Source of the DNA: an uncultured Gemmatimonadales bacterium
GTDB taxonomy: Bacteria > Gemmatimonadota > Gemmatimonadetes > Gemmatimonadales > GWC2-71-9
Assembly: GCA_963828735.1 (NCBI GenBank)
Contig: CAWHFW010000005.1
Coordinates: 2,233,261-2,297,260 of the forward strand
DNA: 64,000 nt
Direction: 5' to 3'
Of the stretch, positions 25,064-46,561 are shown piece after piece. The notes beneath the pieces were generated by a model. The model saw nothing but the letters and a program-made list of their open reading frames with translations, did no database searches and was not told where the DNA came from. Numbering within the stretch: position 1 is the stretch's first letter; the number at the start of each line of letters is the position of its first letter. Both the position numbers and the translations under genes were made by a program.

Positions 25064-25609
25064 ATGGCCTATTCGCAACGCCCCGTCGCCGCGAGCATGT
25101 CGCACCCGGACCGATGGCTCGCGTTCCTGCGGATCGTGGTAGGTCTGTATTTCGCGAAGTCCTTCATCACCAAGCTGTCTCTCGTGATGGTGGGCGGCGT
25201 GCTCCCGCTGCCCGGCGCCTCCGAGCGGTGGATCGCCACGATGCCCAAGATCGTGAGCAAGCAGGCGGCGGACAATCCGATCCTGTTTTACAAGCACTTC
25301 CTCGAGAACACCGTCCTCACGCACCCGGAAACGTTCGCGCATCTCACCGCGCTGGGCGAAACGATCACGGGCATCGGGCTCACGCTCGGGCTCCTGACCG
25401 GCGCGGCGTCGCTCGTGGGGCTGGTGCTGGTGACGAACTACGGCCTGGCGACCCAGTGGATGTCACCGGGGCAGCAGGGCTTTCACATCGTGCTGTTCGC
25501 GCTGATGATCGCGTTCTTCGCGGCGCGGTCGGGCCGCACGTTGGGGCTCGACGCGATGCTGTGGAGCGCGCGGCCCAAATCGATCTTCGCGAGGCGTCCA
25601 TTTTCCTGA
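25064..25609 (+). CDS. DoxX-family membrane protein
   Basis: Four hydrophobic helices. FLRIVVGLYF and GETITGIGLTLGLLT resemble DoxX/DoxD. GAGGAG SD upstream. Confidence 0.7.
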   Translation: MAYSQRPVAASMSHPDRWLAFLRIVVGLYFAKSFITKLSLVMVGGVLPLPGASERWIATMPKIVSKQAADNPILFYKHFLENTVLTHPETFAHLTALGETITGIGLTLGLLTGAASLVGLVLVTNYGLATQWMSPGQQGFHIVLFALMIAFFAARSGRTLGLDAMLWSARPKSIFARRPFS

Positions 25610-25648: not shown

Positions 25649-26218
25649 CTACCTCACCATCACCGGCCGCGACCGCATCCCGCCCACCACGCCGTCCGCC
25701 TCGCAGTGCGCATCCCGCGCGCTGTACACCACGCAGAACACGCCATCCGCATGCCACCGCTCGTACCACCGCCGCATGACGCCGCGGTCCTGCGCCGAAA
25801 AGCGGGTGGACGGCAGGTCCTCGGTGTAGAGGGCGACGTGAGTGTGCACCGTGCCGGACCAGTCGGGCGGCCCGCAGCGGTCGATCGAGGCTTCGGCGGC
25901 GATGCTCAGGGAATCCGCTCCGGTAGGAACGAGCGCGAGGATCCGGGCGACGAACACCGTGTCGTTCCGGACGGTCGCGGCCAGGCAGGCGACCCGCTCC
26001 TGCTTGGCGGCGACGCTCTCCTCCCAGAGTGCGCGGAGGCCGAGGCCGGCCTCCTGTCTGAAGCGAAACGCGGGCTGGGGAGCGTTGGAGATGCTGTCGG
26101 GCGCGGCGCTGTCCGCGGCGGGCGGCGTGTCGGCGTTGGCCTGCGCCGCCGCGGGCCGGACGGCCACGACGCTCGCCGCCAGAACGGCGGCGAGCGCGAT
26201 GCGGCGCCCAGCGCTCAA
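25649..26218 (-). CDS. secreted hypothetical protein with JAMM/MPN+-like motif set (paralog B)
   Basis: TTG 26218 overlaps the paralog A stop (TTGA). Signal peptide RRIALAAVLAASVVAVRPAAAQA. Motifs ERVACL, GTVHTH, FSAQD. Four conserved Cys. Confidence 0.6.
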   Translation of the reverse strand: MSAGRRIALAAVLAASVVAVRPAAAQANADTPPAADSAAPDSISNAPQPAFRFRQEAGLGLRALWEESVAAKQERVACLAATVRNDTVFVARILALVPTGADSLSIAAEASIDRCGPPDWSGTVHTHVALYTEDLPSTRFSAQDRGVMRRWYERWHADGVFCVVYSARDAHCEADGVVGGMRSRPVMVR

Positions 26219-26697
26219 TACTTCGCGCTGGGGAGAATCACCACCTGGGAGCCGTCGATCTCGCAATGGGCCTGGTCCTCGGCGAAGAGCAGGCAGAAGG
26301 TGCCGTCGGCCTTCCAGCGCTGCCACCACATCAGCATGATCCCACGATCCGCGCCGGAGAACTGGGCGTAGGGTCGCTGGCCGGCGGTGAGCGCGATGTG
26401 GGTGTGCACGGTGCCCTGCCACAGGGGCGGGCCGCAGGCCTCGAGGGAGGCCTGGGCCGACACCGCGAGCGAATCCGCCCCCGCGACGAGCGGTTGGACC
26501 CGAGTGATCCGCAGAGTGTCGCCGTCGATGACACTCGCGAGACAGGCGACCTGCTCCGTCCGTGCAGCGATGCTGGCGCTCCAGAGCGCGTGCAGGCCCG
26601 TGACGGCCTCGGAGGTCACACTGAACGCGAGCGGCGCGCTCCCATGGGGCAGGGCGAGTGGGAGGGCCAGGATCGCCAGGGCCAACCGAGCCGTCAT
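26215..26697 (-). CDS. secreted hypothetical protein with JAMM/MPN+-like motif set (paralog A)
   Basis: ATGA overlap with the beta-propeller gene. Signal peptide MTARLALAILALPLALP. Motifs EQVACL, GTVHTH, FSGAD. Aligns with paralog B over about 120 aa. Confidence 0.6.
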   Translation of the reverse strand: MTARLALAILALPLALPHGSAPLAFSVTSEAVTGLHALWSASIAARTEQVACLASVIDGDTLRITRVQPLVAGADSLAVSAQASLEACGPPLWQGTVHTHIALTAGQRPYAQFSGADRGIMLMWWQRWKADGTFCLLFAEDQAHCEIDGSQVVILPSAKY

Positions 26698-27803
26698 GGG
26701 GCCTCGCCCAGGGCGACGCCCCAGGGGATCTTGCCCACCGGAATCCTCTTCTCGACCGTCAGCTTGTCGGCATCCACCACGCTCACGTCGTTCGACGGGC
26801 CATTGGCCGTGTACAGCTTCCGGCCATCCGGGGTGATCGCGATGCCCCAGGGGCGCTGCCCCACCGGCACCGACGCGGTCAGCGAATCCGTGGCGACCTC
26901 GATCACGGACACGGTTCCTCCTCGTCCGTTGGTCACGTAGATCCGCTTGCCGTCCGGCGAGGCGACCGAGCCCATCGTCCTCGAATCCTTGGGCATCGGA
27001 AGCACCGCGATCTTCTTCCGGGTCGCCGCGTCGAGCACCCAGACGGTACCGTCGACCTCGGACGTGACGTACGCTCTGGCGCCGTCTGGCGTGAACGCGA
27101 GCGACCGCGGCCGCTTCCCGACCTCCACCTCGCCGATCTTCTTGCCGGTCTGAGTGTCCAGGATGGTGACGTTGTGATCCGTCTCGCCCGTCACCCAGAC
27201 AGCCTTCCCGTCGGGCTGGACCTTCACGCCCTCAGGCTCTTTCCCGACGGGGATGGTCGCGCGAATCTTCCCGCTCGCCACGTCCACGATCGACGCGGTG
27301 CCCGCATCCTCGTTGGAGACGAAGAGCGTGCTGCCGTCGAGGCTGATGTCGAACGCCTCCGGGTCCGACCCGCCCGGGAGCACGCGAGTCACCTTGCGCG
27401 CCACGGCGTCCACCACCGCGATGCCGTCCTTCGACTTGTCGGACTTGAGCTTTTCGCACTCCTCGTCGGGCATGGTCGGCGGACACTTCGGGCTCCCGCT
27501 CAGCGCGACGAAGATGGTCTTGCCGTCGGGACTCACGCGCACGCCGCGTGGCCGGGTGCCGACGGGGATGGTGGTCACCACGCTGTCCGTACGCGTGTCG
27601 ATCACGGTGAGGTCCTGCGAGTCCTCGTTCGTGACGTAGGCCAGCAGCGCCTTGCCGGCCGGCGCGGCGGCCTGGCTCGGCGCGGCCGAGTCGGTGGCCG
27701 ACGGGCGAGCCTCACGCGGCCCGCACGCGGCACCGAGGGCGAGGGCGAGCGCCGGGGCGGCGCGAAGGCGAACGATAGGGCGGCGGTCGGTATTACTTGG
27801 CAT
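26694..27803 (-). CDS. YVTN-type beta-propeller protein (PQQ-dependent catabolism-associated type)
   Basis: Repeated about 40-aa units (AYVTNEDSQDLTVID..., VSPDGKTIFV, LFVSNEDAGTASIVD, AYVTSEVDGTVWVLD, IYVTNGRGGTVSVIE, LYTANGPSNDVSVVD). Confidence 0.85.
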   Translation of the reverse strand: MPSNTDRRPIVRLRAAPALALALGAACGPREARPSATDSAAPSQAAAPAGKALLAYVTNEDSQDLTVIDTRTDSVVTTIPVGTRPRGVRVSPDGKTIFVALSGSPKCPPTMPDEECEKLKSDKSKDGIAVVDAVARKVTRVLPGGSDPEAFDISLDGSTLFVSNEDAGTASIVDVASGKIRATIPVGKEPEGVKVQPDGKAVWVTGETDHNVTILDTQTGKKIGEVEVGKRPRSLAFTPDGARAYVTSEVDGTVWVLDAATRKKIAVLPMPKDSRTMGSVASPDGKRIYVTNGRGGTVSVIEVATDSLTASVPVGQRPWGIAITPDGRKLYTANGPSNDVSVVDADKLTVEKRIPVGKIPWGVALGEAP

Positions 27804-28683
27804 CGAATGTGGCCTTGTCTCGGTTACGGGCTTCGGTCATGCCCTGGACGCGGTCCAGCCCGATGGCGCCGGTGAAATCCGCGCCGTCCAGGTTCGCCTT
27901 GTCCAGCTTGGCCCCGGTGAGGTCGGCGTGTGTGAGGTCGGTCTGCACCAGCTCGGCGTTGCTCAGCGTGGTTCCGGTCAGCCGGGCTTTGGCCAAGGTC
28001 GCGTGGGACAGGTCGGCCTTGAAGAGGTTGGTGTTCGACAGGTCGGCCCCGGTGAGGTCGGCGCCGACGAACGTCGCGCGCATCACGCCCATCGACTGGT
28101 TGCCGGGGTCGGCGCCCATGTTGGCGTTGCGCATGATCGCTCCGGTGAGCTTGGCGCTCCGGAGGTACCCGATGACGCGCGTGCCCGACAGGTTGGCCTC
28201 GCTCAGGTCGGCCGCTTCGATGATCGTGGCGAAGAGGCTCGCCCCCTCGAGGTTGGCGTGCTGAAGCTTGGCGCGTCGAAGCACCGTGCCGTCGAGATTG
28301 GCTTTGGTGAAGTCGGCGCCGGTGAGGATCGCGTCGGTGAGGTCGCACGAGAACAGGTTGGCGCCTGCCAGCTTGCTGCCGGCCAGCGAGACGCCGGTCA
28401 GGTTGGCGCGCTTGAAATCCACGCCGGTCAGGTCGAGCCCGCTGAGGTTGGCCTTGGCGAAGTCGGGAGGCGAGCTCTGCGTCGCGGCGGCGAGGCGCGA
28501 CTTGACCTCGGCCGCCGTGAGCCGAACAGTCGGAGAATCGGCCCGCTCTGCCCGGAGCGGTCCACTCGCGGAGCGGAACAGCCCGGTGGCGCTGGCCGGA
28601 CCCGCGGTGCCGCCGAGCGGCACCGCGACGAGGATCGCGATGCCCGCCTGGAGCCAGGGTGAGATCGGTACGACAGTCGGCAT
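27793..28683 (-). CDS. pentapeptide-repeat protein, secreted
   Basis: ATG 28683 (MPTVVPISPWLQAGIAILVAVPLGG). About 40 A(D/N)LxG-type pentapeptides (ANLSGLDLTGVDFKRANLTGVSLAGSKLAGANL...). Confidence 0.85.
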   Translation of the reverse strand: MPTVVPISPWLQAGIAILVAVPLGGTAGPASATGLFRSASGPLRAERADSPTVRLTAAEVKSRLAAATQSSPPDFAKANLSGLDLTGVDFKRANLTGVSLAGSKLAGANLFSCDLTDAILTGADFTKANLDGTVLRRAKLQHANLEGASLFATIIEAADLSEANLSGTRVIGYLRSAKLTGAIMRNANMGADPGNQSMGVMRATFVGADLTGADLSNTNLFKADLSHATLAKARLTGTTLSNAELVQTDLTHADLTGAKLDKANLDGADFTGAIGLDRVQGMTEARNRDKATFDAK

Positions 28684-28763
28684 CGCTCGCCCCCCGTTGG
28701 GGTGGTCGTGGGACCGTGCCTCGTGAACATATCCGGACTCGGCCTGCTTGGCCAACGTACCGG

Positions 28764-28802
28764 ACAAAAGAAGACGGGACCGCGAAGCTCCGCGGTCCCG
28801 TC
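28764..28802 (-). terminator. intrinsic terminator after xoxG
   Basis: 12-bp perfect stem GACGGGACCGCG / CGCGGTCCCGTC (28773-28784 / 28791-28802) and 6-nt loop, followed on the minus strand by TTCTTTTGT. Confidence 0.75.
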
Positions 28803-28823: not shown

Positions 28824-29264
28824 TCAGCCCTCGCGTTTGACCGCTGGTCGGCCGGGCGCGAGCTTCGCGTCGCTTCTCGCCTTCACATAGCTGTAGATCT
28901 TGTCGATCGTTGGGATCTCCATCCCGAGCGAGCACCAGGACGGCATGCCCTTCTCCGGACGTCCGGCGCAGACCGTCTGCATGAACAGCTCTTTCGTGTT
29001 GATCGGTCCGTCGGCCTTGAGCGAGAGGATCAAGTGCGGGGCGAAGGACGTCCCGAGCGCGTCCTCACCGTGGCACCGGGCACAGTTCAGGTTGAACTGC
29101 TTCCACCCGTCGTACACCTCCTGGGTCACAGTGTCCCGCGGCGCCTGGTGGTAGGCATCGCGGAGCTCCTGGGCGACGGCGCGCGTCGTGAGGGCCGAGG
29201 CTGCCAGGAGCACGCCGGCACCCAGCACGATCCGGCGAAGAACGGCGGTGAGGGGCGTACGCAT
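28824..29264 (-). CDS. xoxG: c-type cytochrome, methanol-metabolism type (XoxG-like)
   Basis: Signal peptide, heme motif CARCH, extra Cys pair (VCAGRPEKGMPSWC). Lies directly after xoxJ. Confidence 0.75.
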   Translation of the reverse strand: MRTPLTAVLRRIVLGAGVLLAASALTTRAVAQELRDAYHQAPRDTVTQEVYDGWKQFNLNCARCHGEDALGTSFAPHLILSLKADGPINTKELFMQTVCAGRPEKGMPSWCSLGMEIPTIDKIYSYVKARSDAKLAPGRPAVKREG

Positions 29265-29383: not shown

Positions 29384-30274
29384 TCATCCCGGCCCGGCCT
29401 TCTTGGCCGTATCGGTCGCGGACTTTTCCTGGGCCTCGGTGACGATCGGCAGCATCGGGATGTTGTACTGCTTGAGAATGCCGTCGATCTCCGGCCGCCG
29501 CCGGTCGAGCACCGCCTGGACGCTGTCGCGGAAGTCCTTGTCACGCCGGCGGACGGCGATGCCCATGTTGTATTGGAACGGAATGTCGCTCAGGCTGTCC
29601 TTCGCCGGGAGAGGCGTGAGCACGAGCGGCACGGGGGACTGCTTCGCGAAGTAGCCGGCGAGCGGCCCCCAGACGATGGCGAGGTCCACGTCCTTGTTGG
29701 CCACACCCTTGATGATGTCCTCTGGGCGCTCTTTGTCACTGAAAAACGTGAAATAGCCGGTCAGGTTGCCCACCACGCCATAGCGGCTCAGGGCCATGGC
29801 CGGCGGCGAGTTCTCGGCGTCGGAGGTGTACATGTTGACGCCGATCTTGAGCTTCTTGAGCCGCGGGTCGGCCAGCGACTTGAGGTCCTCGAGCCCGCTG
29901 CCCTGACGAACCACGAACACATAGCCCGAGCGGAAGTAGGGCTTGGTTACGCCGGCTATGTCGAGGCCGGCCGGCGCCTCCATCGCCATGTCGCAGTACA
30001 TGCCGTTCAGGATGCGGAAGTAGCCTCGCCGCGTGGGGTACCACACGTAGGTCAGTTTGGCCTTCAGCTCCGTCGCGACCAGCTCCGCGATCTTGTTCTC
30101 GAAGCCCTCACTCTTTTCGTTGGACGAGGGCATGTTGTCCGGGTCGGCACAGACCCGGATGAGGCCCGGGTCCCTGGGCGCGGGGCGCTGGGCATGAGCC
30201 GGTACGGCCCGGACCAGGCCGAAGCCGGCCAGCACCAGGAAACACGCAGTCTGTGAAGCACGGTGCGACATCAC
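29384..30274 (-). CDS. xoxJ: quinoprotein-dehydrogenase-associated periplasmic binding protein (MoxJ/XoxJ-like)
   Basis: Signal peptide. LIRVCADPDNMPSSN...GFENKIAELVA... is a type-2 periplasmic-binding fold, as in MoxJ. Sits between xoxF and the cytochrome gene. Confidence 0.8.
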   Translation of the reverse strand: MMSHRASQTACFLVLAGFGLVRAVPAHAQRPAPRDPGLIRVCADPDNMPSSNEKSEGFENKIAELVATELKAKLTYVWYPTRRGYFRILNGMYCDMAMEAPAGLDIAGVTKPYFRSGYVFVVRQGSGLEDLKSLADPRLKKLKIGVNMYTSDAENSPPAMALSRYGVVGNLTGYFTFFSDKERPEDIIKGVANKDVDLAIVWGPLAGYFAKQSPVPLVLTPLPAKDSLSDIPFQYNMGIAVRRRDKDFRDSVQAVLDRRRPEIDGILKQYNIPMLPIVTEAQEKSATDTAKKAGPG

Positions 30275-30409: not shown

Positions 30410-32293
30410 TTACTTCGGCGCCGCCATGTTCTTGAGACCGAACACGGTCATCACGCCGCCCTGGGTGCTGAACTGGCCCGCGTCGCCGAAGGCGCCGAGC
30501 GCGCCGAGACCGGCGGTCGGATCTTCTGCGCCGATGCCAGCGGCCACGCCGATACCGGCCCAGCCGCCGATGCCCGAGTAGACGGCCACGTACTGCTGGC
30601 CATCCGGCCCGAGGTAGGTCATCGGGTTGCCGATGATGCCCGACGGCGTCTTGAACTGCCAGAGGACCTTGCCGGTCTTGGCATCGACGCCCTTGAGCCA
30701 GCCTTCCATGGTGCCGTAGAAGACGAGCCCGCCGGCCGTGGTCATGGCCCCGCCGTACGCCGCGAGGTTCTCCTTGATCTCCCACACCACGGAGCCCTTC
30801 ATCGGATCCCAGGCGATGAACCGGCCGCGATGGCCGCCGGGGCCCGGGAACATCCGCACGATCGCGCCGACGTACGGCTGACCGGCGGTGTACTTCACCT
30901 CGACGCCTTCATAGTCCATGCAGATGTGGTTCGCCGGGACGTAGAAGAGGCCGGTGACCGGCGAGTACGCCGAGGGCTGCTGATCCTTGAAGCCGATGGC
31001 GGCCGGGCAGATGCCCTCGCCGTTCTTCTTCGAGGAGGTGCCGTACTTCGGATCCTTGACCGGCACGCCGGTGGTCGTGACGCCCTCGACCGGGGTGCCC
31101 GTGCCGCCGTTTTTGGCCCAGTTGATCGGGCCGTACGCGTTGCCGACGATAACCTTGCCGTTGGTGCGGTCGACCGTGTACGCGATGCCGTTACGATCGA
31201 AGTGGGCAAGCAGCTTCTTGCCACCGCTCTCGAACAGCACGTTCTCGTTCACGCCGTCATAGTCCCACTCATCGTGCGGGGTCATCTGGTAGGCCCAGAC
31301 CACCGTGCCGTCATCCGGCTTCCGCGCGAACATGGTCATCGACCACTTGTTGTCGCCCGGCCGCTGGTCAGGATTCCAGGTGCCCGGGTTGCCCACGCTG
31401 TAGTAGAAGTTGTCGAGCTCGGGGTCGTAGGAGTACCAGCCCCACGTGGTCCCGCCGCCCCGCTTCCACTCGTCGCCCTGCCAGGTCGAGACGCCGAGAT
31501 CCTTGCCCTTGTGAGACGGATAGTTCGCGTTCGCGTCGCCCTTGAGGAGGACTTCGTCGTCCGGGCCGGTGCTGTAGCCGGTCCAGATGTGCTCGCCCGT
31601 GTTGGCGTCGAAGGCCGAGACGCGGCCGCGCACGCCGAACTCGCCGCCGGAGATACCGGCGATGACGATTTCCTTGCCCGACTTGGTCTTGATGTAGATC
31701 GGGGCGTTGGTCATCGTGGCGCCCTGCTTGTAGCCGTTGGCCTCGACCCCGGCGTTCGAGTGATCCGGGTGCTTGGCCTTCCACAGCTCCTTGCCGGTCT
31801 TCGCGTCGAGGGCGATCAGCTCACCCTGCAGCGCCTGGATGTAGATCTTCCCGCTCGGGCTGTACGCCGTTCCACGATTCACCAGGTCGCAGCACGCGAT
31901 TGGAATCGCGTCGGGCGACTGGTTGGGCACGTACTTCCAGATCTGCGGCGCGCCGGGCTTCGACAGATCGAGCGCGTACACGATGTTCGGGAAGGACGTG
32001 TTGACGTACATCACATTGCCGATGACGAGCGGATTGCCCTCGTGGCCGCGCAGCGTGCCGGTCGAGAACGACCAGACGGGCCGCAGCTCGCCGACGTTGG
32101 CCGTCGTGATCTGCTTGAGCGGGCTGAACCGCTGCAGGCTGTAATCACGGCCGGTCATCGTCCATTCGCCCTCTTTGCCGTTCAGGGTCCATGCCCCTGT
32201 ACGAGCAGCCTGGGCGTTGGCGGACGCAACGAAGGCTACGCTCAGCCCCGCCGCGATCCCGCCGCACAGCACCTTCTGCGTAAAGCGGTTCAT
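30410..32293 (-). CDS. xoxF: PQQ-dependent methanol/ethanol dehydrogenase, lanthanide-type (XoxF)
   Basis: ATG 32293 with GAGG SD. Signal peptide. Vicinal disulfide IACCD. W-repeat propeller. WDYDGVNE carries the extra Asp characteristic of XoxF (MxaF has Ala there). 627 aa. The track ORF to 32818 is a spurious extension. Confidence 0.93.
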   Translation of the reverse strand: MNRFTQKVLCGGIAAGLSVAFVASANAQAARTGAWTLNGKEGEWTMTGRDYSLQRFSPLKQITTANVGELRPVWSFSTGTLRGHEGNPLVIGNVMYVNTSFPNIVYALDLSKPGAPQIWKYVPNQSPDAIPIACCDLVNRGTAYSPSGKIYIQALQGELIALDAKTGKELWKAKHPDHSNAGVEANGYKQGATMTNAPIYIKTKSGKEIVIAGISGGEFGVRGRVSAFDANTGEHIWTGYSTGPDDEVLLKGDANANYPSHKGKDLGVSTWQGDEWKRGGGTTWGWYSYDPELDNFYYSVGNPGTWNPDQRPGDNKWSMTMFARKPDDGTVVWAYQMTPHDEWDYDGVNENVLFESGGKKLLAHFDRNGIAYTVDRTNGKVIVGNAYGPINWAKNGGTGTPVEGVTTTGVPVKDPKYGTSSKKNGEGICPAAIGFKDQQPSAYSPVTGLFYVPANHICMDYEGVEVKYTAGQPYVGAIVRMFPGPGGHRGRFIAWDPMKGSVVWEIKENLAAYGGAMTTAGGLVFYGTMEGWLKGVDAKTGKVLWQFKTPSGIIGNPMTYLGPDGQQYVAVYSGIGGWAGIGVAAGIGAEDPTAGLGALGAFGDAGQFSTQGGVMTVFGLKNMAAPK

Positions 32294-33038
32294 AACTGAC
32301 CTCAGGATGAAGGGTGGTTCTACTGCTCTACTGCATTTCGTTGCCGCGTGCTGGCTGACGTGTGCTGCGAGTGCCGGGGGCGGCTGAGGCGGCGACTGGG
32401 CTCGAGTCCCGCTCGTGGCTGCCGGCCGGCGCGACCTACGGACTGGCAGGACGGCCGGGCGGCGACGGCGGACCTCGTTCGGCCATCGCGGGGTCCCCGC
32501 GCTCGCTGCGGGATGGGGTTCTCCCTGAAGTACGCCTCGAGACAGCCCCGCGGATGGTCGCGGGATGCGCCACGGCGTCAGGGCACCGGGCTGGACTCGG
32601 GCACGAGGCAACGCTGTGAGGAGTGCGAAAACGACCAAGGGAAGGGAGCGACGAGGACCGGAAGGACAGGGGTGACGCGGTATGCCCGTTCGGATGCCAC
32701 CGCCACCGCGTCGTTCCCGTGCGCCACGCGCCCTGCGAGGCGCAGGACCGCGCATCGACCGCGAGGGAATACGACATCGTGCCAACGGTGGAAGCGAACG
32801 GGAACAAGCCCATCTCACCCCTCAGCGTCGCCGCTGAACCACGTTGTGCTCATTTAAAGAACTGCACTTGAGGAGGCGGCTCGGCACTGTGCCGCCCGAA
32901 ACATTCTTCTGTTCCAAGCCCTGGAAACACTGGAGCAGTCCCGCGACAGTCGACTGTGGCACTGCGACGCGAACATCAGCCAAGTCGCCGCCTGCGGGAG
33001 GCTTAGAGGGGCCAGTATACATCGTGCAAAATGAACTG

Positions 33039-34016
33039 TCAATCACGGTTTCCGGCATTTCGCGACCGCCAGACCCGGGCCCCGGACCCCGCGAATCCCC
33101 CCTCGAAAACCTGGCCGCCCGGTCCCGCCACCTCCGCTGCCCGCCCCGCCAGCGCCCGTCCCTCCTCCACGCTCCCGACCAGCCCATACACCGCGGGCCC
33201 CCAGGAGCTCTGCCCGACCCCCGCCGCCCCCCACTCCGCCAGGCGTCCGACCAGCGTTTCCGAGGGGCCGCGCGCGAAGGTCCCGCCTTGCTCGGGAGCG
33301 AACCACGCGCCGGTGATGCGCTGGATCTCCGTGAGCGCGGCGCCGAAGCTCGTGAGATCGGCCTCCGCCAGCGCCGGCAACAGCTGCATCAGCACCAGGT
33401 GCGCGACGCGCTCCACTTCACGCTCGGCGGGCGGCGCGAGCCGTTCGAACGCCGCGGCCTCGGCGTCGCCGCTCAAGCCAGGGGTGCCCCGAGGCACCAC
33501 CACCACGCAGCGCCATGTTGCCGGAAGTGGAAAACGGGCCAGCAGCGGTGCGATGTCGCCCGCCCCCGGCCTGCGTCCACCTTCCACGATGAAGCCGCCC
33601 AGGGCGAATGTCCAGGTGCCGATCGCCGATCGGCGGCCACGGTCCACCGCGCGCGCCAGGGCGGCGGGCTCGGTCGGGAGGCCGTAGAGCTCCGCGAGCG
33701 CGCGCGCCACGGCCAGGCCGAGCTGGGTGCCGGAGCCGAGTCCGCTGTGCGGCGGGATCGCCCGATGCACCGTCAGACGCACGCCGCCAGTGAGCTCGTG
33801 GTGGGCGAGGAATCGCTCCGCGAACGCCATGGCGCGCTCCGCCTCCGGTCCACGGGCGCTCAACCCTGTGGCCCGGACCGCCTCCAGCAACAGCGATGGC
33901 GCCGGCACTGCGGCGCCCAGTCCGCCAAAGCGCCGGCCCAGTGCCCCGCGGAGGTCGAGCACCCCGAAATGGAGCCGGGCATCCGCCTCCACGAAGACGC
34001 TACCGGTCTCGGACAT
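33039..34016 (-). CDS. mptG: beta-ribofuranosylaminobenzene 5'-phosphate synthase (GHMP-kinase fold)
   Basis: ATG 34016. ARLHFGVLDL...IPPHSGLGSGTQLGLAVARAL is typical of beta-RFAP synthase, the first committed H4MPT step. pabAB lie upstream. Confidence 0.8.
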   Translation of the reverse strand: MSETGSVFVEADARLHFGVLDLRGALGRRFGGLGAAVPAPSLLLEAVRATGLSARGPEAERAMAFAERFLAHHELTGGVRLTVHRAIPPHSGLGSGTQLGLAVARALAELYGLPTEPAALARAVDRGRRSAIGTWTFALGGFIVEGGRRPGAGDIAPLLARFPLPATWRCVVVVPRGTPGLSGDAEAAAFERLAPPAEREVERVAHLVLMQLLPALAEADLTSFGAALTEIQRITGAWFAPEQGGTFARGPSETLVGRLAEWGAAGVGQSSWGPAVYGLVGSVEEGRALAGRAAEVAGPGGQVFEGGFAGSGARVWRSRNAGNRD

Positions 34017-34545
34017 ACTCGGTGAGCATGGCCATCGCCTCATGCTCGCGCGGTCCGGCGGTCTTGTCCACGATGACCTGCAGGCGGGCGAACTCGGAGC
34101 GGATCTCCTCGCGCGGGATGAGGTGTGTCCGGGTCGCGAAGATGGCGGCCTCGAGCACCGCGTGGCGGGCGCGGTTGAAGCCGAGGAACTCCCGCCGGTT
34201 TCCGCGATGCACCACGCGGGTCTCGATGCGCGATCTGGGTGGCGTGTCGTCGATCGACACCACCTCGAGCTCGCGCCAGGAGCAAGCGGCCTCGAGCACC
34301 GCCCCGCGCACCACCGTCGCCGGCAGCCAGGGGAACTGGGGACTCGAAATGGCCCCCTGGGCGAACAGCATGACGTCGTCGGTGAGATTGACGACGGCCA
34401 CCCGCGTCTCGCGCACGTTGCGGAACGTGGTCGTCTCGAGAAACGGCTTGATGACGATCGTCGGGTCGCCCCACTCGACGCCCATGGGGGCGAAGTTGAT
34501 CGCCCCATCCGGCGCCATCGTCGTCAGGATGGACTCGATGATCAC
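34000..34545 (-). CDS. DUF447-family protein (H4MPT-cluster associated)
   Basis: GTG 34545 overlaps the pabA stop (GTGA). VIIESILTTMAPDGAINFAPMGV... is a flavin-reductase-like split barrel. Confidence 0.7.
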   Translation of the reverse strand: MIIESILTTMAPDGAINFAPMGVEWGDPTIVIKPFLETTTFRNVRETRVAVVNLTDDVMLFAQGAISSPQFPWLPATVVRGAVLEAACSWRELEVVSIDDTPPRSRIETRVVHRGNRREFLGFNRARHAVLEAAIFATRTHLIPREEIRSEFARLQVIVDKTAGPREHEAMAMLTEYVRDR

Positions 34546-35216
34546 CGCACGATATCCACCGGCGGTGGGGCGGAGGCGAGCGTGCTCTCTTCGGGGCCCG
34601 CGGGCACGAGCACGCAGTCGGCAGCGACGGGCACGGCGCGGGGAGTGGCCGGAACCCCGTGCAGGAAGTGATCGACCAGGCGGTAGCCGTGCTCCGTCAG
34701 CACCGATTCCGGGTGGAACTGCACCCCGTGCACCGGGTGCCGGGCGTGCTGGACGGCCATGATCTCGCCGTCCTCGGACGTCGCCAGGACCTCGAGATCG
34801 GACGGAACGGAGGCCGGCGCGATCACGAGCGAGTGGTATCGGGTCGCGCGAAACGGCGAGGGCAAGCCGTGAAAGATGCCGGCGCCGGTGTGGTGGATCA
34901 TCGAGGTCTTGCCGTGCATGGGCTGACCGGCTCGAACGATCTCGCCGCCGTAGGCGGCCCCGATGCATTGGTGTCCCAGACACACTCCCAGGATCGGTAT
35001 CGTGGCGCCGAGACGGCGGACGACCTCGGTGGAAATCCCCGCCTCGGCGGGCGAGCAGGGACCCGGGGAAATGATGATGTGGGAGGGCGCCATCGCTTCC
35101 ACGTCATCGACGCTCAGGGCGTCGTGCCGGAGGACCACCGGGGTTTCCCCGAGCTCACGGACGTAGCGCGCCAGGTTGTAGACGAACGAGTCGTAGTTGT
35201 CGAGCAGGAGGATCAT
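34542..35216 (-). CDS. pabA: aminodeoxychorismate/anthranilate synthase component II (glutamine amidotransferase)
   Basis: MILLLDNYDSFVYNL, GVCLGHQ (catalytic Cys), VQFHPES. ATGA overlap with pabB. Confidence 0.85.
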   Translation of the reverse strand: MILLLDNYDSFVYNLARYVRELGETPVVLRHDALSVDDVEAMAPSHIIISPGPCSPAEAGISTEVVRRLGATIPILGVCLGHQCIGAAYGGEIVRAGQPMHGKTSMIHHTGAGIFHGLPSPFRATRYHSLVIAPASVPSDLEVLATSEDGEIMAVQHARHPVHGVQFHPESVLTEHGYRLVDHFLHGVPATPRAVPVAADCVLVPAGPEESTLASAPPPVDIVR

Positions 35217-36706
35217 GAGCCGGCCAGCGCGCCGATCAACCCGCGCGCCTTGTCCAGAGTTTCCCGGTATTCGAGCTCGGGATCGGAATCGGCCACGATT
35301 CCGCCGCCCGCCTGGAAGTATACCCGGCCCCGAAGCGCCAGATAGGTACGGATCACGATGCTCGTATCCATCGCGCCCGTCGTCGACAGATACCCGATGG
35401 AGCCGCAGTACACGCCGCGGCGGGACGGCTCGAGCTCGGCGATGATCTCCATCGCCCGGACCTTGGGCGCGCCCGTGATTGAGCCGCCTGGAAACGCCGC
35501 GCGAAGGAGCTGAATCGCATCCGCCGACGGGTCGAGCTCGCCGACGACGGTCGACACGAGATGATGCACGGTCGGATGCGCCTCGAGCGCGAACAGCTCG
35601 GGCACGCGGACGGTCCCCGCCTTGCACACCCGCGAGAGGTCGTTCCGCAGCAGATCCACGATCATCACGTTCTCGGCCCGGTCCTTGTCGCTCTCGGCGA
35701 GGGCGCGACCGAGCGCGGCGTCGTGCATCGGGCCGAGCCCGCGGGGACGGGTGCCCTTGATGGGGCGGGTCTCGACGTGGCGCCCGTTCTCGTCCAGCCG
35801 AAGGAACCGCTCCGGCGAGGCGCTCATCACGTGGTGGCTGCCGCAGTCGAGATAGGCGGCAAACGGGGCCGGATTCCGGCGCCGGAGGCGGGTGTAGAGA
35901 TCGAACGGCGCCTCGGTGAGCGGCGACTGGAAACGCTGGGAGAGGTTGGCCTGGAAGATGTCCCCGGCGACGATGTAGTCGCGGACGCGAGTGACCGCGT
36001 CGAGGTAGCCGCGGTGCGTGAACGTCGAGCGGAGTCCGATCGGCTCCGCCCGCTCCACGCCGAGCACCGGGTAGGACGGCGCCTCCGCCTCTACGGGCGG
36101 GAGGTGCGGACGTCCGCCGGTCGCGGGCCGTCGGGCGGGACCGCCCAACCGCTCCCGCACCATCGCCAACCGCTCGCGCGCACGGACCTCGCGCGCCACG
36201 CCGGACTCGGGCAGCCCGGTCGAGATGATCCAGGCCGTTCCGACCCGGTGGTCCCACGCGATGACCCAGTCGTACAGGCCGAGAATGACGTCGGGGATCG
36301 CGAGGTCGTCGAACCGGGGCGCCGGCAGGCGCTCGAGGGCCGCGCCGTAGTCGTATCCGATGTACCCGGCGGCGCCTCCCTGGAATGGTGGCAGGCCCGA
36401 GACGGGCGCGGCGGCGAACGGCGCCAGCAGCTCCCCCACGGTGAGCAGGGGATCCGCGTCGGTAGGTGTCCACGGGAGGCCAGGGCCACCGATCTCCGTC
36501 GTCCGCCCCTTGCTGCGCACGATCCGCGCGGGGTCGGCGGCGAGGAACGAGTAGCGGCCGAGGTGGTGAGCGTCGCCCCCGCGCGGGGCGCCCGTGGCGC
36601 TGTCGAGAAACACGAGCCACGGAAGGTCGAGGAACCGGGCGACGACCGCGATCGGGTCCCCCGTCTCGCCCAGGTTGTCTACCAGCGGGGCCGCACGATC
36701 GTCCAT
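35213..36706 (-). CDS. pabB: aminodeoxychorismate synthase component I
   Basis: ATG 36706 (TAATG overlap). Chorismate-binding core SPERFL, PIKGTRPRG, DRAENVMIVDLLRND, FPGGSITGAPK, YCGSIGY. Confidence 0.85.
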   Translation of the reverse strand: MDDRAAPLVDNLGETGDPIAVVARFLDLPWLVFLDSATGAPRGGDAHHLGRYSFLAADPARIVRSKGRTTEIGGPGLPWTPTDADPLLTVGELLAPFAAAPVSGLPPFQGGAAGYIGYDYGAALERLPAPRFDDLAIPDVILGLYDWVIAWDHRVGTAWIISTGLPESGVAREVRARERLAMVRERLGGPARRPATGGRPHLPPVEAEAPSYPVLGVERAEPIGLRSTFTHRGYLDAVTRVRDYIVAGDIFQANLSQRFQSPLTEAPFDLYTRLRRRNPAPFAAYLDCGSHHVMSASPERFLRLDENGRHVETRPIKGTRPRGLGPMHDAALGRALAESDKDRAENVMIVDLLRNDLSRVCKAGTVRVPELFALEAHPTVHHLVSTVVGELDPSADAIQLLRAAFPGGSITGAPKVRAMEIIAELEPSRRGVYCGSIGYLSTTGAMDTSIVIRTYLALRGRVYFQAGGGIVADSDPELEYRETLDKARGLIGALAGS

Positions 36707-38157
36707 TAGCGCGGGCCCCGCCGAGAGGGCGCGCCCGGGCGCCGGCGACGCGGCGTGAGCTTCACGTGGTCCGAGCGCAGCTCGTCGGGCGGTGTGAGAT
36801 ATCCCCACTGCAGCGCGCCTTCCTGCCGGTAGGTCTTGCCCAGCGTGATGGCGAGCTTGGCGCGGGCCAGCTCCCGTCCCAGATAGAACGCGTGGGTCGC
36901 CTCGTCCACGCCGAGCTGCGCGAAGATCTCCTGGATGTCGGTGCCGCGCACGAAGATCTCGTCGTTGAAGACGGTGATCGTGGTGCGGTCGGTGAAGATG
37001 CGGAAGTTGGGATCCTTGACGGCGGCGTGGAGCTGGCGGAGCTCGGCTTCGTCGTACTCGAGGATGACCGGGTCCTTCACCGTGACCAGTCGGTCGTCCA
37101 CGTTCTTGGGCAGCGTGCGCTGCCGGACGGCGTGGTACATGAGGCGGCGGGCGACGTCGATCTCGCGCACCGCGCCCCGTGCCCACGGAATCACTTCCGT
37201 CGTGAGCACGGCGCGGACGCCGGTCTCCTGGCAGATGGCGAGCAGCAGGGCGTGGACGCCGGTCGTGTCGGCGCTGGTGAGCTCGGTGATGTTGCCGACG
37301 CCCATCAGCTGCGCCGCGTCCGGATGACGACGGTGGATTTCGGCGTACCGCTCGAGCGAGGCGGTGAAGCCGAAGCCGATCGGCTCGATGACCGGATCGA
37401 TGAGGTATCCCACGCCCCACCGCTCGAGCGCCTCGAGCGTGGCGGACAGGGTATCGATCCCCTCGCCGAAGTCCGGAATCGCGACGACGCGCGCACCCGT
37501 GCCGGCAAGCGCGCGCGCGACGTCGCGGTTGGAGCCGTTGACGCTCAACACCAGCTCGGCGCCCGCCTCGACGGCCGCGCGGATCTCTCCCGGATCGAAG
37601 CTGTCCACGCTCACCCGCATACCCGCACCGCGGAGCTCGCGCACGATGTCGGGCAGCGCGGGAAAGGGAACGCCCGGGGTGCAGCCGAGGTCGATGATGT
37701 CGGCGCCGCTCGCGGCGAAGTAGTCCGCCGCGGCCCGAACCGCCTCGCGGGACAGCTTCGGGGCGTTGTTGATCTCGGCGAGGATTTCGATGTCGTACTC
37801 CCCGTAGCTCACCGCGGCCTGGGCGTGGCCGAAGTAGCGGGGAATCTCGCGGAGGTCCTTCGGGCCCCTTTCCACGGGGACGCCGTAGCGCTCGCGCAGA
37901 ACTTCGGTGTCGCCTTCGACGAGACCCGGCAGGAGCACCAGGTCGGTGTCGGGCGGCACCTCGAGGAACCGCGCGATCCATGGCGTCGTCATGAGCGCGG
38001 CCACGGTGATCTTCATGACCGCCACCGCCGCCTCGAACGGCGGCGCCATCTCGTCCAGGACACGCCGAAGCGCCGGCTCGGCGAGCCGGCCGGTGACAAA
38101 CAGGACTTTGCGGGGCGCCGCGGCTGGTGCTACCGTGGATCCCCCGGCCGAACCCAT
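36706..38157 (-). CDS. dihydropteroate-synthase-like pterin-binding protein (H4MPT biosynthesis type)
   Basis: ATG 38157. N-terminal extra domain followed by a pterin-binding TIM barrel (ADIIDLGCTPG, SVDSFDP, LMGVGNITE). Confidence 0.8.
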   Translation of the reverse strand: MGSAGGSTVAPAAAPRKVLFVTGRLAEPALRRVLDEMAPPFEAAVAVMKITVAALMTTPWIARFLEVPPDTDLVLLPGLVEGDTEVLRERYGVPVERGPKDLREIPRYFGHAQAAVSYGEYDIEILAEINNAPKLSREAVRAAADYFAASGADIIDLGCTPGVPFPALPDIVRELRGAGMRVSVDSFDPGEIRAAVEAGAELVLSVNGSNRDVARALAGTGARVVAIPDFGEGIDTLSATLEALERWGVGYLIDPVIEPIGFGFTASLERYAEIHRRHPDAAQLMGVGNITELTSADTTGVHALLLAICQETGVRAVLTTEVIPWARGAVREIDVARRLMYHAVRQRTLPKNVDDRLVTVKDPVILEYDEAELRQLHAAVKDPNFRIFTDRTTITVFNDEIFVRGTDIQEIFAQLGVDEATHAFYLGRELARAKLAITLGKTYRQEGALQWGYLTPPDELRSDHVKLTPRRRRPGAPSRRGPR

Positions 38158-38492
38158 TTGTTCGGCGTCCCCTCGAGCGCGCCACCCGTCGGTCGCCAGA
38201 GCGCGACCTCCTCGATCTTCCGCGCGAGCTCGAAGTCCTTGTCCGTGATCCCGCCGGCGGCGTGGTTCTGGAGCTTCACGGTCATCCGCCCCCACGTGAC
38301 CGACAGGTCCGGGTGGTGGTAGGCCGCTTCCGCCAGGTAGCCGACGGCGTTCACCAGCATCAGGGTCGTGGGCCATCCGTCGGTCTTGAACACCCGTCGG
38401 ATCCAGCCATCCTCGTAGTACCAGCCGGGCAGCGCCTTCAGCCGCTCGGTGATTTCTGCCTCGTCGTAGGTACGCTCTTTGGTCGCCGGCAT
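38130..38492 (-). CDS. phhB: 4a-hydroxytetrahydrobiopterin (pterin-4a-carbinolamine) dehydratase
   Basis: LPGW...F.F..W..A..F.N.V...AE...HHPD pattern (GYLAEAAYHHPDLSVTWGRMTVKL). Confidence 0.88.
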   Translation of the reverse strand: MPATKERTYDEAEITERLKALPGWYYEDGWIRRVFKTDGWPTTLMLVNAVGYLAEAAYHHPDLSVTWGRMTVKLQNHAAGGITDKDFELARKIEEVALWRPTGGALEGTPNKWVRPGDPR

Positions 38493-38519
38493 CTTGCTCT
38501 CCTTGCAGTGCGATTCCGT

Positions 38520-39269
38520 TTACATCACCACGCCACCGTTCACCATGATCATCTGTCCCGTCATGAACCGGGAATCGTCCGAGGCCAGGAAGACGGCTGC
38601 GCCGACGAGATCCTCTGGCCGGCCCCAGCGTCGGAGCGGCGTTCGCTCCGCGACGTCCCGGTGCCAGTCCTGGTCCGCCTGTTCGCCGAAGGCGGTCTCG
38701 ATGAAGCCCGGCGCGAGGATGTTCACCCGGATCGCCGGCGCCACCTGCCGCGCGAGCGACCTGCTGAAGCTCGCGATACCGCCCTTGGCCGCCGAATACA
38801 GGATGGGATTCTCACCGGCCATGCCGACGGATACGTGATCCCACGACATGTTGATGATGACGCCGCCCCGCTCGCGCATCGACTCTACCGCCGCCCAGGA
38901 GGCCAGGATGGTCCCGCGCAGATCCACGGCGAGCACGAGGTCCAGCTTCTCGCGCCGGGACAGACGGCCGCCGGCGCCGGTGAGGATATCGGCCCCGGCG
39001 TTGTTGATCCAGGCGTCGACCCGCCCGAGTCGCTCGCCGAGAGCGTTCGCCAGCGCGGAGACGTCAGCGTCCTGGCTGAGGTCCACCCTCAGCACCTCGG
39101 CGCGGCGGCCGAGGGAGCGGATGGTCTGTGCCGTCTCCTCGGCGCCCTCGGCGTTGCCGCGATAGGTCACCGCGAGGTCGGCGCCTTCGCGAGCGCAGCC
39201 TACGGCGATCGCGCGGCCGATACCGCTGGACGCGCCGGTCACCAGCACGATCTTGCCGTCCAGCCTCAC
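38520..39269 (-). CDS. SDR-family oxidoreductase
   Basis: TGASSGIG cofactor motif, NNAG, catalytic YSAAK. GTG start. Substrate unknown; the position next to pterin genes hints at a pterin reductase role (inference only). Confidence 0.85.
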   Translation of the reverse strand: MRLDGKIVLVTGASSGIGRAIAVGCAREGADLAVTYRGNAEGAEETAQTIRSLGRRAEVLRVDLSQDADVSALANALGERLGRVDAWINNAGADILTGAGGRLSRREKLDLVLAVDLRGTILASWAAVESMRERGGVIINMSWDHVSVGMAGENPILYSAAKGGIASFSRSLARQVAPAIRVNILAPGFIETAFGEQADQDWHRDVAERTPLRRWGRPEDLVGAAVFLASDDSRFMTGQMIMVNGGVVM

Positions 39270-39352
39270 GCCGCCTCCCCTCGCTCGAACCTGCGCGCTA
39301 ACTTCAAGAATCCCAACATATCAGGGCCATAGCAACTCACAAGGGAGTCCGG

Positions 39353-40084
39353 ATGCGGCTGTTGGTGAGCGTGCGATCGGCGGCGGAGGTCGGGACGGCG
39401 GTGGCGGGTGGCGCGCGGATCGTGGATGCCAAGGAGCCTGGGCGCGGGTCGCTCGGCGCGGTCGACGCCGGAACGCTCCGCGCGATCGCCGGCGCGCTGC
39501 CGCCGGGAGTGCCGCTCAGCGTGGCTCTGGGCGACCTGACGGCCCCTGCCGCGCTCGCCACTGCGCTTTCGGTGCTCGACCGCATCGTGGAACGCCCGGA
39601 GGAGCTGTACGTGAAAGTCGGACTCGCTGGCATCGAGCAACCATTCGCGGCGCGAGCGGTACTCGCGGCGGCAGTGGACGCGGCAGCGCGCACGCCGCTC
39701 CGGCCCGATGTCGTGGCGGTCGCGTACGCTGATCATGCCGGTGCCCGTGCCCTGTCACGCGAGGCGATTACGGCGCTGGCCGGCGAAACGGGCGCGCGCG
39801 GTGTCCTGATCGACACCTGGATCAAGGACGGCCGCGACATCTTCGCCTGGGCCACGATCCACGAGCTCGAGGACTGGGTAGGTCAGTCGAAGTCCCGCGG
39901 CCTCCTCACCGGGGTCGCAGGCTCGCTTACGGCGGATGGGGTGCAGCGAGTGGCCGCGCTGTCGCCGGATGTGGTCGGCGTGCGGGGCGCGGCGTGTTCC
40001 GGCGGCCGCCTGGGGTTGGTGGAAGAGCTGCGGGTTCGCGGGCTCGCCAACGCACTGAGAGAGCCAGTCGGCGGAGCGGTATAA
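39353..40084 (+). CDS. mfnB: (5-formylfuran-3-yl)methyl phosphate synthase (methanofuran biosynthesis)
   Basis: MRLLVSVRSAAEVGTAVAGGARIVDAKEPGRGSLGA... is a DUF556/MfnB-type TIM barrel. AAGGGAG SD upstream. Confidence 0.78.
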   Translation: MRLLVSVRSAAEVGTAVAGGARIVDAKEPGRGSLGAVDAGTLRAIAGALPPGVPLSVALGDLTAPAALATALSVLDRIVERPEELYVKVGLAGIEQPFAARAVLAAAVDAAARTPLRPDVVAVAYADHAGARALSREAITALAGETGARGVLIDTWIKDGRDIFAWATIHELEDWVGQSKSRGLLTGVAGSLTADGVQRVAALSPDVVGVRGAACSGGRLGLVEELRVRGLANALREPVGGAV

Positions 40085-40174
40085 CTTGTTGATACAAATG
40101 CAGTTTGTGGCAACTCAGCGCGCTTCTGCTTCGGCGGTTTTCGGGTTATATTCAGGCCAATCGCGGAGGCCCGA

Positions 40175-40477
40175 ATGCCCGACCCATTTCCCGATCTGAA
40201 TGCGTTCCCCATCGACCCCGTGCGCCTCGAGCGCTGCCTCGAGCTCCGCACCTTCCATCTGGATTCCGGTCGGTATCAAATCGTTGGGGGCGCCCAAACG
40301 CACTGGGTCGACCTGTTCTCCGCCGACGTTCCCCGCTGCGATTGCGGCGACCATCTGTGGCGCGAGCGAGCCTGCAAGCACATTCTCGCCGCGCTCTTGC
40401 GCGAAGGTGACGAGCGGGTGCTCGCTGCCTTGCGCGATCTGATCGCCTCCGCTCGAAGCCGTCCGCTCGCCGCCTGA
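40175..40477 (+). CDS. SWIM zinc-finger protein (small)
   Basis: CDCGDHLWRERACKHILA matches the CxCxnCxH SWIM signature. 100 aa. Confidence 0.65.
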   Translation: MPDPFPDLNAFPIDPVRLERCLELRTFHLDSGRYQIVGGAQTHWVDLFSADVPRCDCGDHLWRERACKHILAALLREGDERVLAALRDLIASARSRPLAA

Positions 40478-40602
40478 CGCGAATTGCCGGAAAGGCGCCA
40501 GGCACCCGCCTGCTGCGGCCCGTCCAACTGTCCGCCCCACAAGCTTTTTCGTCTCATGCCCCGTGGGGCATAAGCCTTGCCGACTGGCGCGACCGTGTTG
40601 GC

Positions 40603-43575: not shown

Positions 43576-43600
43576 TGGCGGTTCTATGCGTTGCGGCCGC

Positions 43601-43618
43601 CGGAGGGACGTCCCTCCG
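43601..43618. terminator. palindromic hairpin between convergent genes
   Basis: CGGAGGGAC/GTCCCTCCG is an 18-nt perfect palindrome between the GGDEF-EAL stop (43575) and the kinase-fold gene stop (43630). No U-tract. Confidence 0.35.
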
Positions 43619-43629
43619 TAGGACCGGTC

Positions 43630-45245: not shown

Positions 45246-45277
45246 TGGGCTTCGGTCCCTGATAAGTTGGGGTGACC

Positions 45278-46551: not shown

Positions 46552-46561
46552 GACGATCTCC

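Follow-up and report, generated by a model that had tools for sequence, protein, structure and literature searches.

Two small adjoining genes on the minus strand of a 64,000-nucleotide stretch from an uncultured Gemmatimonadales bacterium (contig CAWHFW010000005.1; GC content ~68%), hereafter referred to as the window, encode paralogous proteins that we term A and B. We are confident that both belong to the JAB superfamily and contain an intact JAMM site. On balance, we slightly favor the view that they represent exported, disulfide-stabilized zinc hydrolases of this superfamily, which form part of the Gemmatimonadota island encoding the methanol dehydrogenase XoxF and process, mature, or repair a periplasmic partner. 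JAMM/MPN+ enzymes are familiar as deubiquitinase-type peptidases of the cytoplasm. The nearest homologs of A and B were all found in metagenome-assembled genomes (MAGs) of the Gemmatimonadales. The two genes and the codons of their motif residues are located as follows.

26215..26697, minus strand: protein A, JAMM/MPN+-like and predicted to be exported, 160 amino acids, ATG start; codons for E48 at 26556-26554, H98 at 26406-26404, H100 at 26400-26398, S114 at 26358-26356, and D117 at 26349-26347

25649..26218, minus strand: protein B, paralog of A, 189 amino acids, TTG start, predicted signal peptide MSAGRRIALAAVLAASVVAVRPAAAQA; codons for E74 at 25999-25997, H125 and H127 at 25846-25838, and S141 and D144 at 25798-25787

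As laid out in the first-pass annotation of this DNA, the two genes are arranged in tandem, and the paralogy, the motif and the overlaps with the adjoining genes are all present where it had placed them. A and B share 49% identity over 140 residues (BLASTP, E 4e-49). In A, the motif comprises E48 within EQVACL, H98-T-H100, a spacer of 13 residues and S114-G-A-D117, and the cysteines are found at positions 52, 88, 135, and 145. Correspondingly, B contains E74 within ERVACL, H125/H127, the 13-residue spacer and S141/D144, with cysteines at positions 78, 115, 162, and 172. The residue set E...HxH...SxxD with a longer spacer and four cysteines, as initially proposed, is thus seen in both proteins, and it was further checked in 54 homologs. 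The alignment of these sequences is diverse, with a mean column identity of 21%, and precisely seven columns do not vary, namely E48, C52, C88, H98, H100, S114, and D117. Seven invariant columns at such a low mean identity indicate that the motif does not arise by chance. C135 and C145 are kept in 50 of the 54 homologs and are missing jointly in the same four, which fits two putative disulfides, C52-C88 and C135-C145. In JAMM enzymes such as AfJAMM, AMSH, and Rpn11 the Glu and the Ser are catalytic and do not ligate the metal. Their invariance (54/54) therefore favors an active hydrolase over a mere metal binder; judged from the sequence, A and B are predicted to bind zinc and to catalyze hydrolysis.

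The AlphaFold2 model of A, which was computed with the 54 diverse sequences (pLDDT 86.2, pTM 0.80) and replaced a run with 11 close sequences (pLDDT 66), shows the order strand-helix-strand-strand-helix-strand-helix-strand-strand, as in MPN domains. A Foldseek search of the PDB with this model yielded 57 matches at E≤1e-3. Those among the matches listed are all MPN-fold proteins and nearly all JAMM/MPN+ enzymes, with TM-scores of 0.5-0.58. The top match is the Caldiarchaeum Rpn11 homolog (6fno/6fnn; TM 0.55-0.58), and further matches include CSN5, Rpn11, AMSH, Sst2, BRCC36, and the bacterial BubCD. Likewise, the top matches among viral structures (BFVD) are designated 'MPN family' or 'JAB domain-containing' proteins. 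B is expected to share the MPN fold, given its 49% identity to the modeled A. Moreover, alignment of the family profile with AfJAMM by hhalign (E 1.8e-4, 90 columns; the AfJAMM sequence used is 100% identical to PDB 1oi0/1r5x) pairs E48/H98/H100/S114/D117 with AfJAMM E22/H67/H69/S77/D80. As a control, the reversed AfJAMM sequence was aligned over 20 columns at E 0.065. When the shallower A3 profile was used, the alignment covered only the half comprising HxH...S..D...C...C (E 0.017). Taken together, the JAB fold of the model, the MPN matches and the pairing with the AfJAMM residues bear out the JAMM/MPN+ assignment made in the first-pass annotation.

Several observations weigh against this assignment. 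The hhalign probability with this single template amounts to just 48.7%. Neither A nor B matched any Pfam or NCBIfam model even at E≤1, PHROGs models did not recognize them either, and the family consensus sequences and distant members gave no usable match in PHROGs, Pfam, or NCBIfam apart from the two outliers named below. In addition, the canonical spacing H-x-H-x(7)-S-x-x-D is unmet in A and B with their 13 residues, and across the family the spacer between HxH and S ranges from 8 to 27 residues, with a mode of 12-13 compared to the canonical 7. In the fragmentary distant member P0197 the spacer, read by eye, is apparently 7. Profile searches of PDB sequences revealed chance matches only (glycogenin-2, E 0.15; POT1, E 1.4). 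A weak sequence bridge to JAB is formed by two outliers that reach the Prok-JAB model (PF14464) below its threshold, namely P0245 (22.5 bits versus a cut-off of 25; E 1e-4) and P0248 (16.3 bits; E 9e-3). The A/B family is a separate one, which lies outside the coverage of existing models. Several homologs (P0002, P0048, P0054, P0081, and others) bear the JGI/IMG name 'endonuclease YncB (thermonuclease family)'. We discarded this designation, as no SNase match was obtained and the fold is MPN; the name looks like a propagated mis-annotation. Given that no Pfam or NCBIfam model exists and that some members are named in this way, a proper family definition would improve annotation.

Two further features of the sequences are recorded here. 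The C-terminal tail of the B clade is conserved as CEADGVVGG(M/L)RS.P (window 25649-25700; P0121, P0126, P0214, P0221, P0227), and its counterpart in the A clade reads CEIDGS.VVILPS..Y. The GG within the B tail superficially resembles the processing site of ubiquitin-like proteins (UBLs) and probably belongs to the last beta-strand. Several database entries of 215-338 amino acids (P0189, P0194, P0128, P0195) are artefactual fusions, which join the C-terminus of a propeller protein to a JAMM-like open reading frame (ORF) or combine A and B out of frame. They result from 4-nucleotide gene overlaps and assembly frameshifts and do not represent a real multidomain architecture.

Signal peptides, which the first-pass annotation had assigned to both proteins, were judged by a heuristic based on hydrophobicity and charge only, and this heuristic agrees for A and B. 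The same holds true for the family: in 48 of the 54 members a positively charged N-terminus precedes a hydrophobic segment no shorter than 11 residues; the other six, without a signal-like N-terminus, are mostly 5′-truncated gene calls. B contains a canonical cleavage site between AAAQA and the following N. For A no clear -3/-1 site is apparent, and the protein may stay membrane-anchored. The basic residues ahead of the hydrophobic segment would place the domain outside the cytoplasm, with A being either cleaved or anchored. A possible Tat signal was also considered for B (GRRIAL); the twin arginines are inconsistently kept in orthologs (P0121 versus L015).

The gene order on the minus strand is xoxF, xoxJ-like, xoxG-like, a terminator-like hairpin, pentapeptide, YVTN propeller, A, and B. 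The features surrounding A and B are listed below.

25064..25609, plus strand: DoxD/DoxX-family membrane protein, convergent with B, with 39 nucleotides between the stops

26694..27803, minus strand: YVTN beta-propeller protein of the PedA2 / TIGR03866 type (TIGR03866 255.9 bits, below the cut-off of 287; TIGR02276 repeats)

27793..28683, minus strand: pentapeptide-repeat protein, PedD-like, heading the four-gene unit

28763..28802, minus strand: intrinsic-terminator-like hairpin with T-run, between xoxG and the pentapeptide gene

28824..29264, minus strand: xoxG-like c-type cytochrome (CxxCH)

29384..30274, minus strand: xoxJ-like periplasmic binding protein (TIGR03871 259.8 bits, above the cut-off)

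30410..32299, minus strand: XoxF-type methanol/ethanol dehydrogenase dependent on pyrroloquinoline quinone (PQQ) (TIGR03075 631 bits; vicinal Cys-Cys in IACCD; DYD lanthanide signature)

Within the four-gene unit the pentapeptide and propeller ORFs share 11 nucleotides (27793-27803). The propeller stop and the A start overlap by 4 nucleotides in ATGA (26697-26694), as do the A stop and the B start in TTGA (26218-26215). Judged from the overlaps only, A and the propeller protein may be co-translated in the window. Any A/B family member is designated J hereafter. Coupling of the two genes is not universal, as relatives show spacings of -4 to about +100 nucleotides between the stop of the propeller gene and J. 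The terminator that had been postulated to separate the unit from xoxFJG was found between xoxG and the pentapeptide gene as a hairpin with a stem of 13 bp including 10 G-C pairs (28802-28773, minus strand), followed by the T-run TTCTTTTG. Of 64 related loci, only 12 contain a comparable hairpin with a T-run, including loci of the second arrangement described below. The recurrence of this element suggests that the accessory unit is often transcribed apart from xoxFJG.

Upstream of xoxF (33039-47000) the window contains a block for the biosynthesis of the cofactors tetrahydromethanopterin (H4MPT) and methanofuran. It comprises genes for a GHMP kinase-like beta-RFAP synthase, DUF447, GATase/PabA-like, DUF6513 and pterin-binding, and SDR proteins, as well as a 4-HFC-P synthase, hydantoinase-like and His_biosynth-like proteins, and PTPS. 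The gene for a large HAMP-GAF-GGDEF-EAL signaling protein sits amid these cofactor genes (40603-43575, plus strand). In loci of the Gemmatimonadaceae type the block is inverted and located directly downstream of the JAMM-like gene. The presence of cofactor genes upstream of xoxF identifies the locus as part of the methylotrophy island of soil Gemmatimonadetes (PMC5103831).

We then compared J loci from other genomes, 54 of them from species-representative genomes and 80 from metagenomes (divergent sub-clade query), complemented by single look-ups; homologs of the window genes were placed in these loci by tblastn. Where at least 7 kb of upstream sequence was available (n=42), xoxF was present in 41 and xoxG in all 42 loci. 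Likewise, of the 65 loci that extend 3 kb or more upstream, 63 include a pentapeptide and/or propeller gene. Among the 88 loci with at least 800 nucleotides on both sides, 84 contain a DoxD-like gene, which is directly adjacent to J in 67. The first-pass annotation had correctly named the pentapeptide, propeller, and xoxFJG neighbors; it had missed the DoxD-like gene, the most constant neighbor. This gene is always located on the opposite strand, convergent in loci of the window type and divergent, at a distance of 90-250 nucleotides, in other lineages (L057, L062, L084, L147, L148). DoxD is absent from L051 and L106, where J still adjoins the propeller and xox genes.

The loci fall into at least four arrangements, across which the claimed association with xoxF/PQQ-dehydrogenase loci holds. 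In the first, represented by the window, H4MPT genes are followed by xoxFJG, pentapeptide, propeller, and J(-J), and then by convergent DoxD, S9 peptidase, and PFK genes. In the second, found in Gemmatimonadaceae (L084, L086, L088, L098, L146, L148), xoxFJG and pentapeptide are followed by DoxD on the opposite strand, J, and the inverted H4MPT genes; these loci lack the propeller, S9, and PFK genes, and their proteins are only 45-50% identical to those of the window. The third consists of pentapeptide and propeller followed by inverted DoxD and J (L147), or of a J-J pair with a TonB-dependent receptor gene after it (L056, L057), and in the fourth J is located directly upstream of xoxF (L101). 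The linkage outlasts inversions and losses that removed housekeeping neighbors, which argues for selection rather than inertia. Regarding membership in the accessory set, J was found co-located with xoxFJG and with PedD-like and PedA2-like genes, nearly all of these loci being within Gemmatimonadota.

Some loci deviate in their gene content. Between B and DoxD, an insert of ~2 kb that is absent from the window is present in L015 (10855-12900) and in about 15 other loci (L003, L014, L021, L022, L029, L033, L034, L039, L041, L042, L044, L046-L049). The insert of L015 codes for an M3-family metallopeptidase (HEFGH) with a signal-like N-terminus, which seems to be frameshifted in this long-read MAG. 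Two xoxG-like cytochrome c genes are found in L052, L053, L075, and L083, and in L084 and L086 a second, distant PQQ dehydrogenase (32-34% identity) is encoded upstream of xoxF.

When 1.84 billion representatives were searched exhaustively with the family profile, 128 clusters at 50% identity were obtained, so that the family is small. The named members derive from Gemmatimonadales, Gemmatimonadaceae, or Gemmatimonadota MAGs, except for two short contigs that bear the labels Krumholzibacteria and Rudaea and may have been misbinned; no cultured isolate is among the matches listed. Orthologs are 50-94% identical, and the synteny is stable across an order (54 genomes). Two copies of J are present in 73 and one in 70 of 144 loci. 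In a neighbor-joining tree the B copies form one clade, and the A copies together with the single-copy forms represent its sister group. The tandem duplication arose twice independently, the second pair being that of the L057 lineage. Even in the most distant members (<35% identity; about 23-34%), E, HxH, S..D and the full set of four cysteines are retained, and the N-termini are signal- or lipoprotein-like.

There are also observations that speak against a role of A and B in the XoxF system. As the named homologs are nearly all from one phylum, the synteny is partly inherited and the loci are not independent. Furthermore, the S9 peptidase and PFK genes are equally syntenic in loci of the window type, and some distant members are encoded in phage-like contigs without xox genes (L059 8001-8600, L060, L063-L065). 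Pfam scans of 28 neighboring proteins revealed no ubiquitin-like, sulfur-carrier, or E1-like genes, and in the window no ORF ending in GG and no candidate substrate was found nearby. The L059 contig is T4-like, with DNA polymerase B, clamp loader, NAMPT, NUDIX, and Macro genes, and the other distant members are found on short contigs with tightly packed small genes. Scans of IMG/VR viral contigs with P0215 and A3 detected no further copies, so the phage link rests on a few metagenome contigs.

The shared synteny of the S9 prolyl oligopeptidase and PFK genes would be explained if A and B were general envelope amidases or isopeptidases acting on peptidoglycan, lipoprotein-peptidoglycan links, or periplasmic peptides, with their xox synteny merely inherited. 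The M3 metallopeptidase gene between B and DoxD in about 16 relatives likewise fits this explanation, as do the secreted or lipoprotein-like distant members in phage-like contigs, a setting in which targets in the envelope are plausible. MPN domains are also carried by phage tail proteins (lambda gpK). However, J stays with xoxFJG, pentapeptide, and H4MPT genes after the loss of S9 and PFK, and in the window A overlaps the propeller gene by 4 nucleotides. A general envelope enzyme would moreover be expected in many phyla, whereas the 128 clusters are almost all from Gemmatimonadota. We regard this explanation as unlikely.

The genomic context would also be compatible with non-catalytic periplasmic buffers or chaperones that supply zinc or lanthanide to the XoxF system. 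The His-His-Asp triad is a metal site, and it is encoded in a lanthanide-enzyme cluster next to a PedA2-like propeller, PedA2 being part of the lanthanide uptake system of Pseudomonas putida (PMC12997753). In L056 (1610-3733) a TonB-dependent receptor gene directly follows the tandem J pair, which would be in keeping with such a function in this lineage. Lanthanides prefer carboxylate oxygens, and a His2Asp site suits Zn2+ rather than these ions. This, together with the invariance of the catalytic, non-ligating Glu and Ser in all 54 homologs, renders a mere metal chaperone quite improbable compared to a hydrolase. P0182 is preceded by a TonB C-terminal domain protein. These TonB neighbors may be tied to the uptake of metal, lanthanide, or PQQ, or may be coincidental.

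Building on the gene structure, paralogy, fold, residue conservation, export signals, and gene association described above, we propose that A and B act as hydrolases. H98, H100, and D117 would bind Zn2+, E48 would activate water, and S114 would stabilize the tetrahedral intermediate. A and B would thereby cleave a C-N bond (peptide, isopeptide, or amide) of a periplasmic substrate. In lineages with two copies, A and B may act as an MPN+/MPN+ pair, given that MPN domains usually pair. As a part of the XoxF island that is specific to the Gemmatimonadota lineage, the genes would be co-inherited and probably co-expressed with those for the pentapeptide protein (PedD-like), the propeller (PedA2-like), and the quinone-linked membrane protein (DoxD-like), and their products would serve in the processing, maturation, or repair of some periplasmic component of the XoxF system. 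Both the heterodimer and the functional tie to XoxF are what we infer from these data.

A stand-alone, Sec-exported and disulfide-bearing JAMM family in a metabolic island would indicate that the chemistry of this fold reaches the periplasm. What is new is the family itself, a branch of the JAB superfamily that existing models miss, together with its compartment and genomic setting; its function is predicted from sequence alone. A and B are testable accessory candidates for the lanthanide-dependent methanol dehydrogenase, whose accessory proteins are poorly understood; we know of no XoxF accessory factor characterized in Gemmatimonadota besides XoxJ and XoxG. These bacteria are abundant soil methylotrophs with XoxF highly expressed in situ (PMC5103831). 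In the open-access literature, the papers on Gemmatimonadetes xoxF clusters name conserved hypothetical proteins, among them neither A/B nor JAMM proteins (PMC10875860, PMC5103831).

Among known systems, the Prok-JAB enzymes (PF14464; AfJAMM, Mec+/CysO, QbsD, HvJAMM1, and the Caldiarchaeum Rpn11 homolog) resemble A and B in their alpha/beta MPN fold, the motif E...HxH...S..D and their small single-domain architecture. However, they are cytoplasmic and target ubiquitin-like or sulfur-carrier proteins encoded nearby. A and B differ from them by the export signal, the four conserved cysteines, a spacer of 13 (12-13 in most of the family) instead of 7 residues, and the lack of UBL or E1 genes in their vicinity. 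If exported, A and B would be removed from ATP-dependent conjugation.

To our knowledge, no exported JAB domains other than Tox-JAB-1 and Tox-JAB-2 have been described in prokaryotes. Both of these represent toxin modules, and Tox-JAB-2 shares with A and B the motif E, H[ST]H, S, D, the central element being HTH in A and B (PMC3482391). A and B could accordingly be viewed as a toxin-related or phage-derived Tox-JAB-like module without relation to metabolism, consistent with the distant member in a T4-like phage contig and with a faint DUF4329 match (E 0.065) in one of the 54 members. Yet Tox-JAB domains, which are proposed nucleases, form the C-terminal part of large RHS-type toxins accompanied by immunity genes, whereas A and B are stand-alone proteins of 160-189 amino acids with Sec-type signals, encoded in a metabolic island without an RHS/trafficking domain or an immunity gene. 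Moreover, their stable chromosomal synteny across an order is the opposite of what characterizes polymorphic toxin loci. A toxin-derived origin is thus highly improbable.

The eukaryotic MPN pairs (Rpn11-Rpn8, CSN5-CSN6, BRCC36-Abraxas) are among the best structural matches, and the tandem A/B arrangement recalls these obligate dimers. In contrast to the eukaryotic MPN+/MPN- pairs, both A and B are MPN+ and predicted to be periplasmic, and they lack partners of the Ins-1/Ins-2 type and scaffolding complexes.

An analogy in genomic context is found in Proteobacteria. PP_2678 of P. putida is a SoxH-like periplasmic Zn hydrolase of the kind encoded in proteobacterial PQQ/lanthanide dehydrogenase clusters with PedD and PedA2; its companions are a SoxYZ-like carrier and a rhodanese protein, and a function in enzyme maturation, in the upkeep of the vicinal disulfide, or in the protection of PQQ has been proposed (PMC12997753). 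Like PP_2678, A and B are candidate periplasmic Zn hydrolases encoded next to PQQ dehydrogenase, pentapeptide, and propeller genes. The fold of PP_2678, however, is that of a metallo-beta-lactamase with HxHxDH, whereas that of A and B is MPN, so that the likeness represents analogy and not homology. Neither the HxHxDH protein nor a GGCGG carrier or a CXXCW rhodanese was found in any credible ORF of the window.

In principle, A and B could take the place of this 'quinoprotein relay system' (PMC12997753) as a non-homologous counterpart, acting with redox-active cysteine pairs as thiol/sulfur redox partners of DoxD. The constancy of DoxD (84/88), which is encoded on the opposite strand and often divergent from J, the vicinal Cys-Cys of the window XoxF, and the missing relay components in the window are in line with this notion. 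The DoxD family was named after a subunit of thiosulfate:quinone oxidoreductase, and adducts of sulfur carriers are substrates of JAMM enzymes such as Mec+. Nevertheless, J remains beside the xox genes in L051 and L106 despite the absence of DoxD, the window contains no carrier protein, and C135/C145 are dispensable in four distant members. We consider such a redox function of the cysteines improbable. By analogy, a non-homologous replacement of the SoxH-like trio by A/B and DoxD is an attractive reading. Its most specific form, in which the periplasmic JAMM hydrolase, as a single protein or an MPN+/MPN+ pair, and the DoxD-like protein constitute a dedicated maturation or repair system for the lanthanide-dependent XoxF, is put forward only tentatively, as a possibility with limited odds in its favor; candidate tasks would be the removal of an adduct or pro-segment, or the servicing of the vicinal disulfide or PQQ. 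If true, the JAMM-DoxD system would be the non-homologous counterpart of the SoxH-like relay and would provide the first JAMM protein with an extracytoplasmic physiological role.

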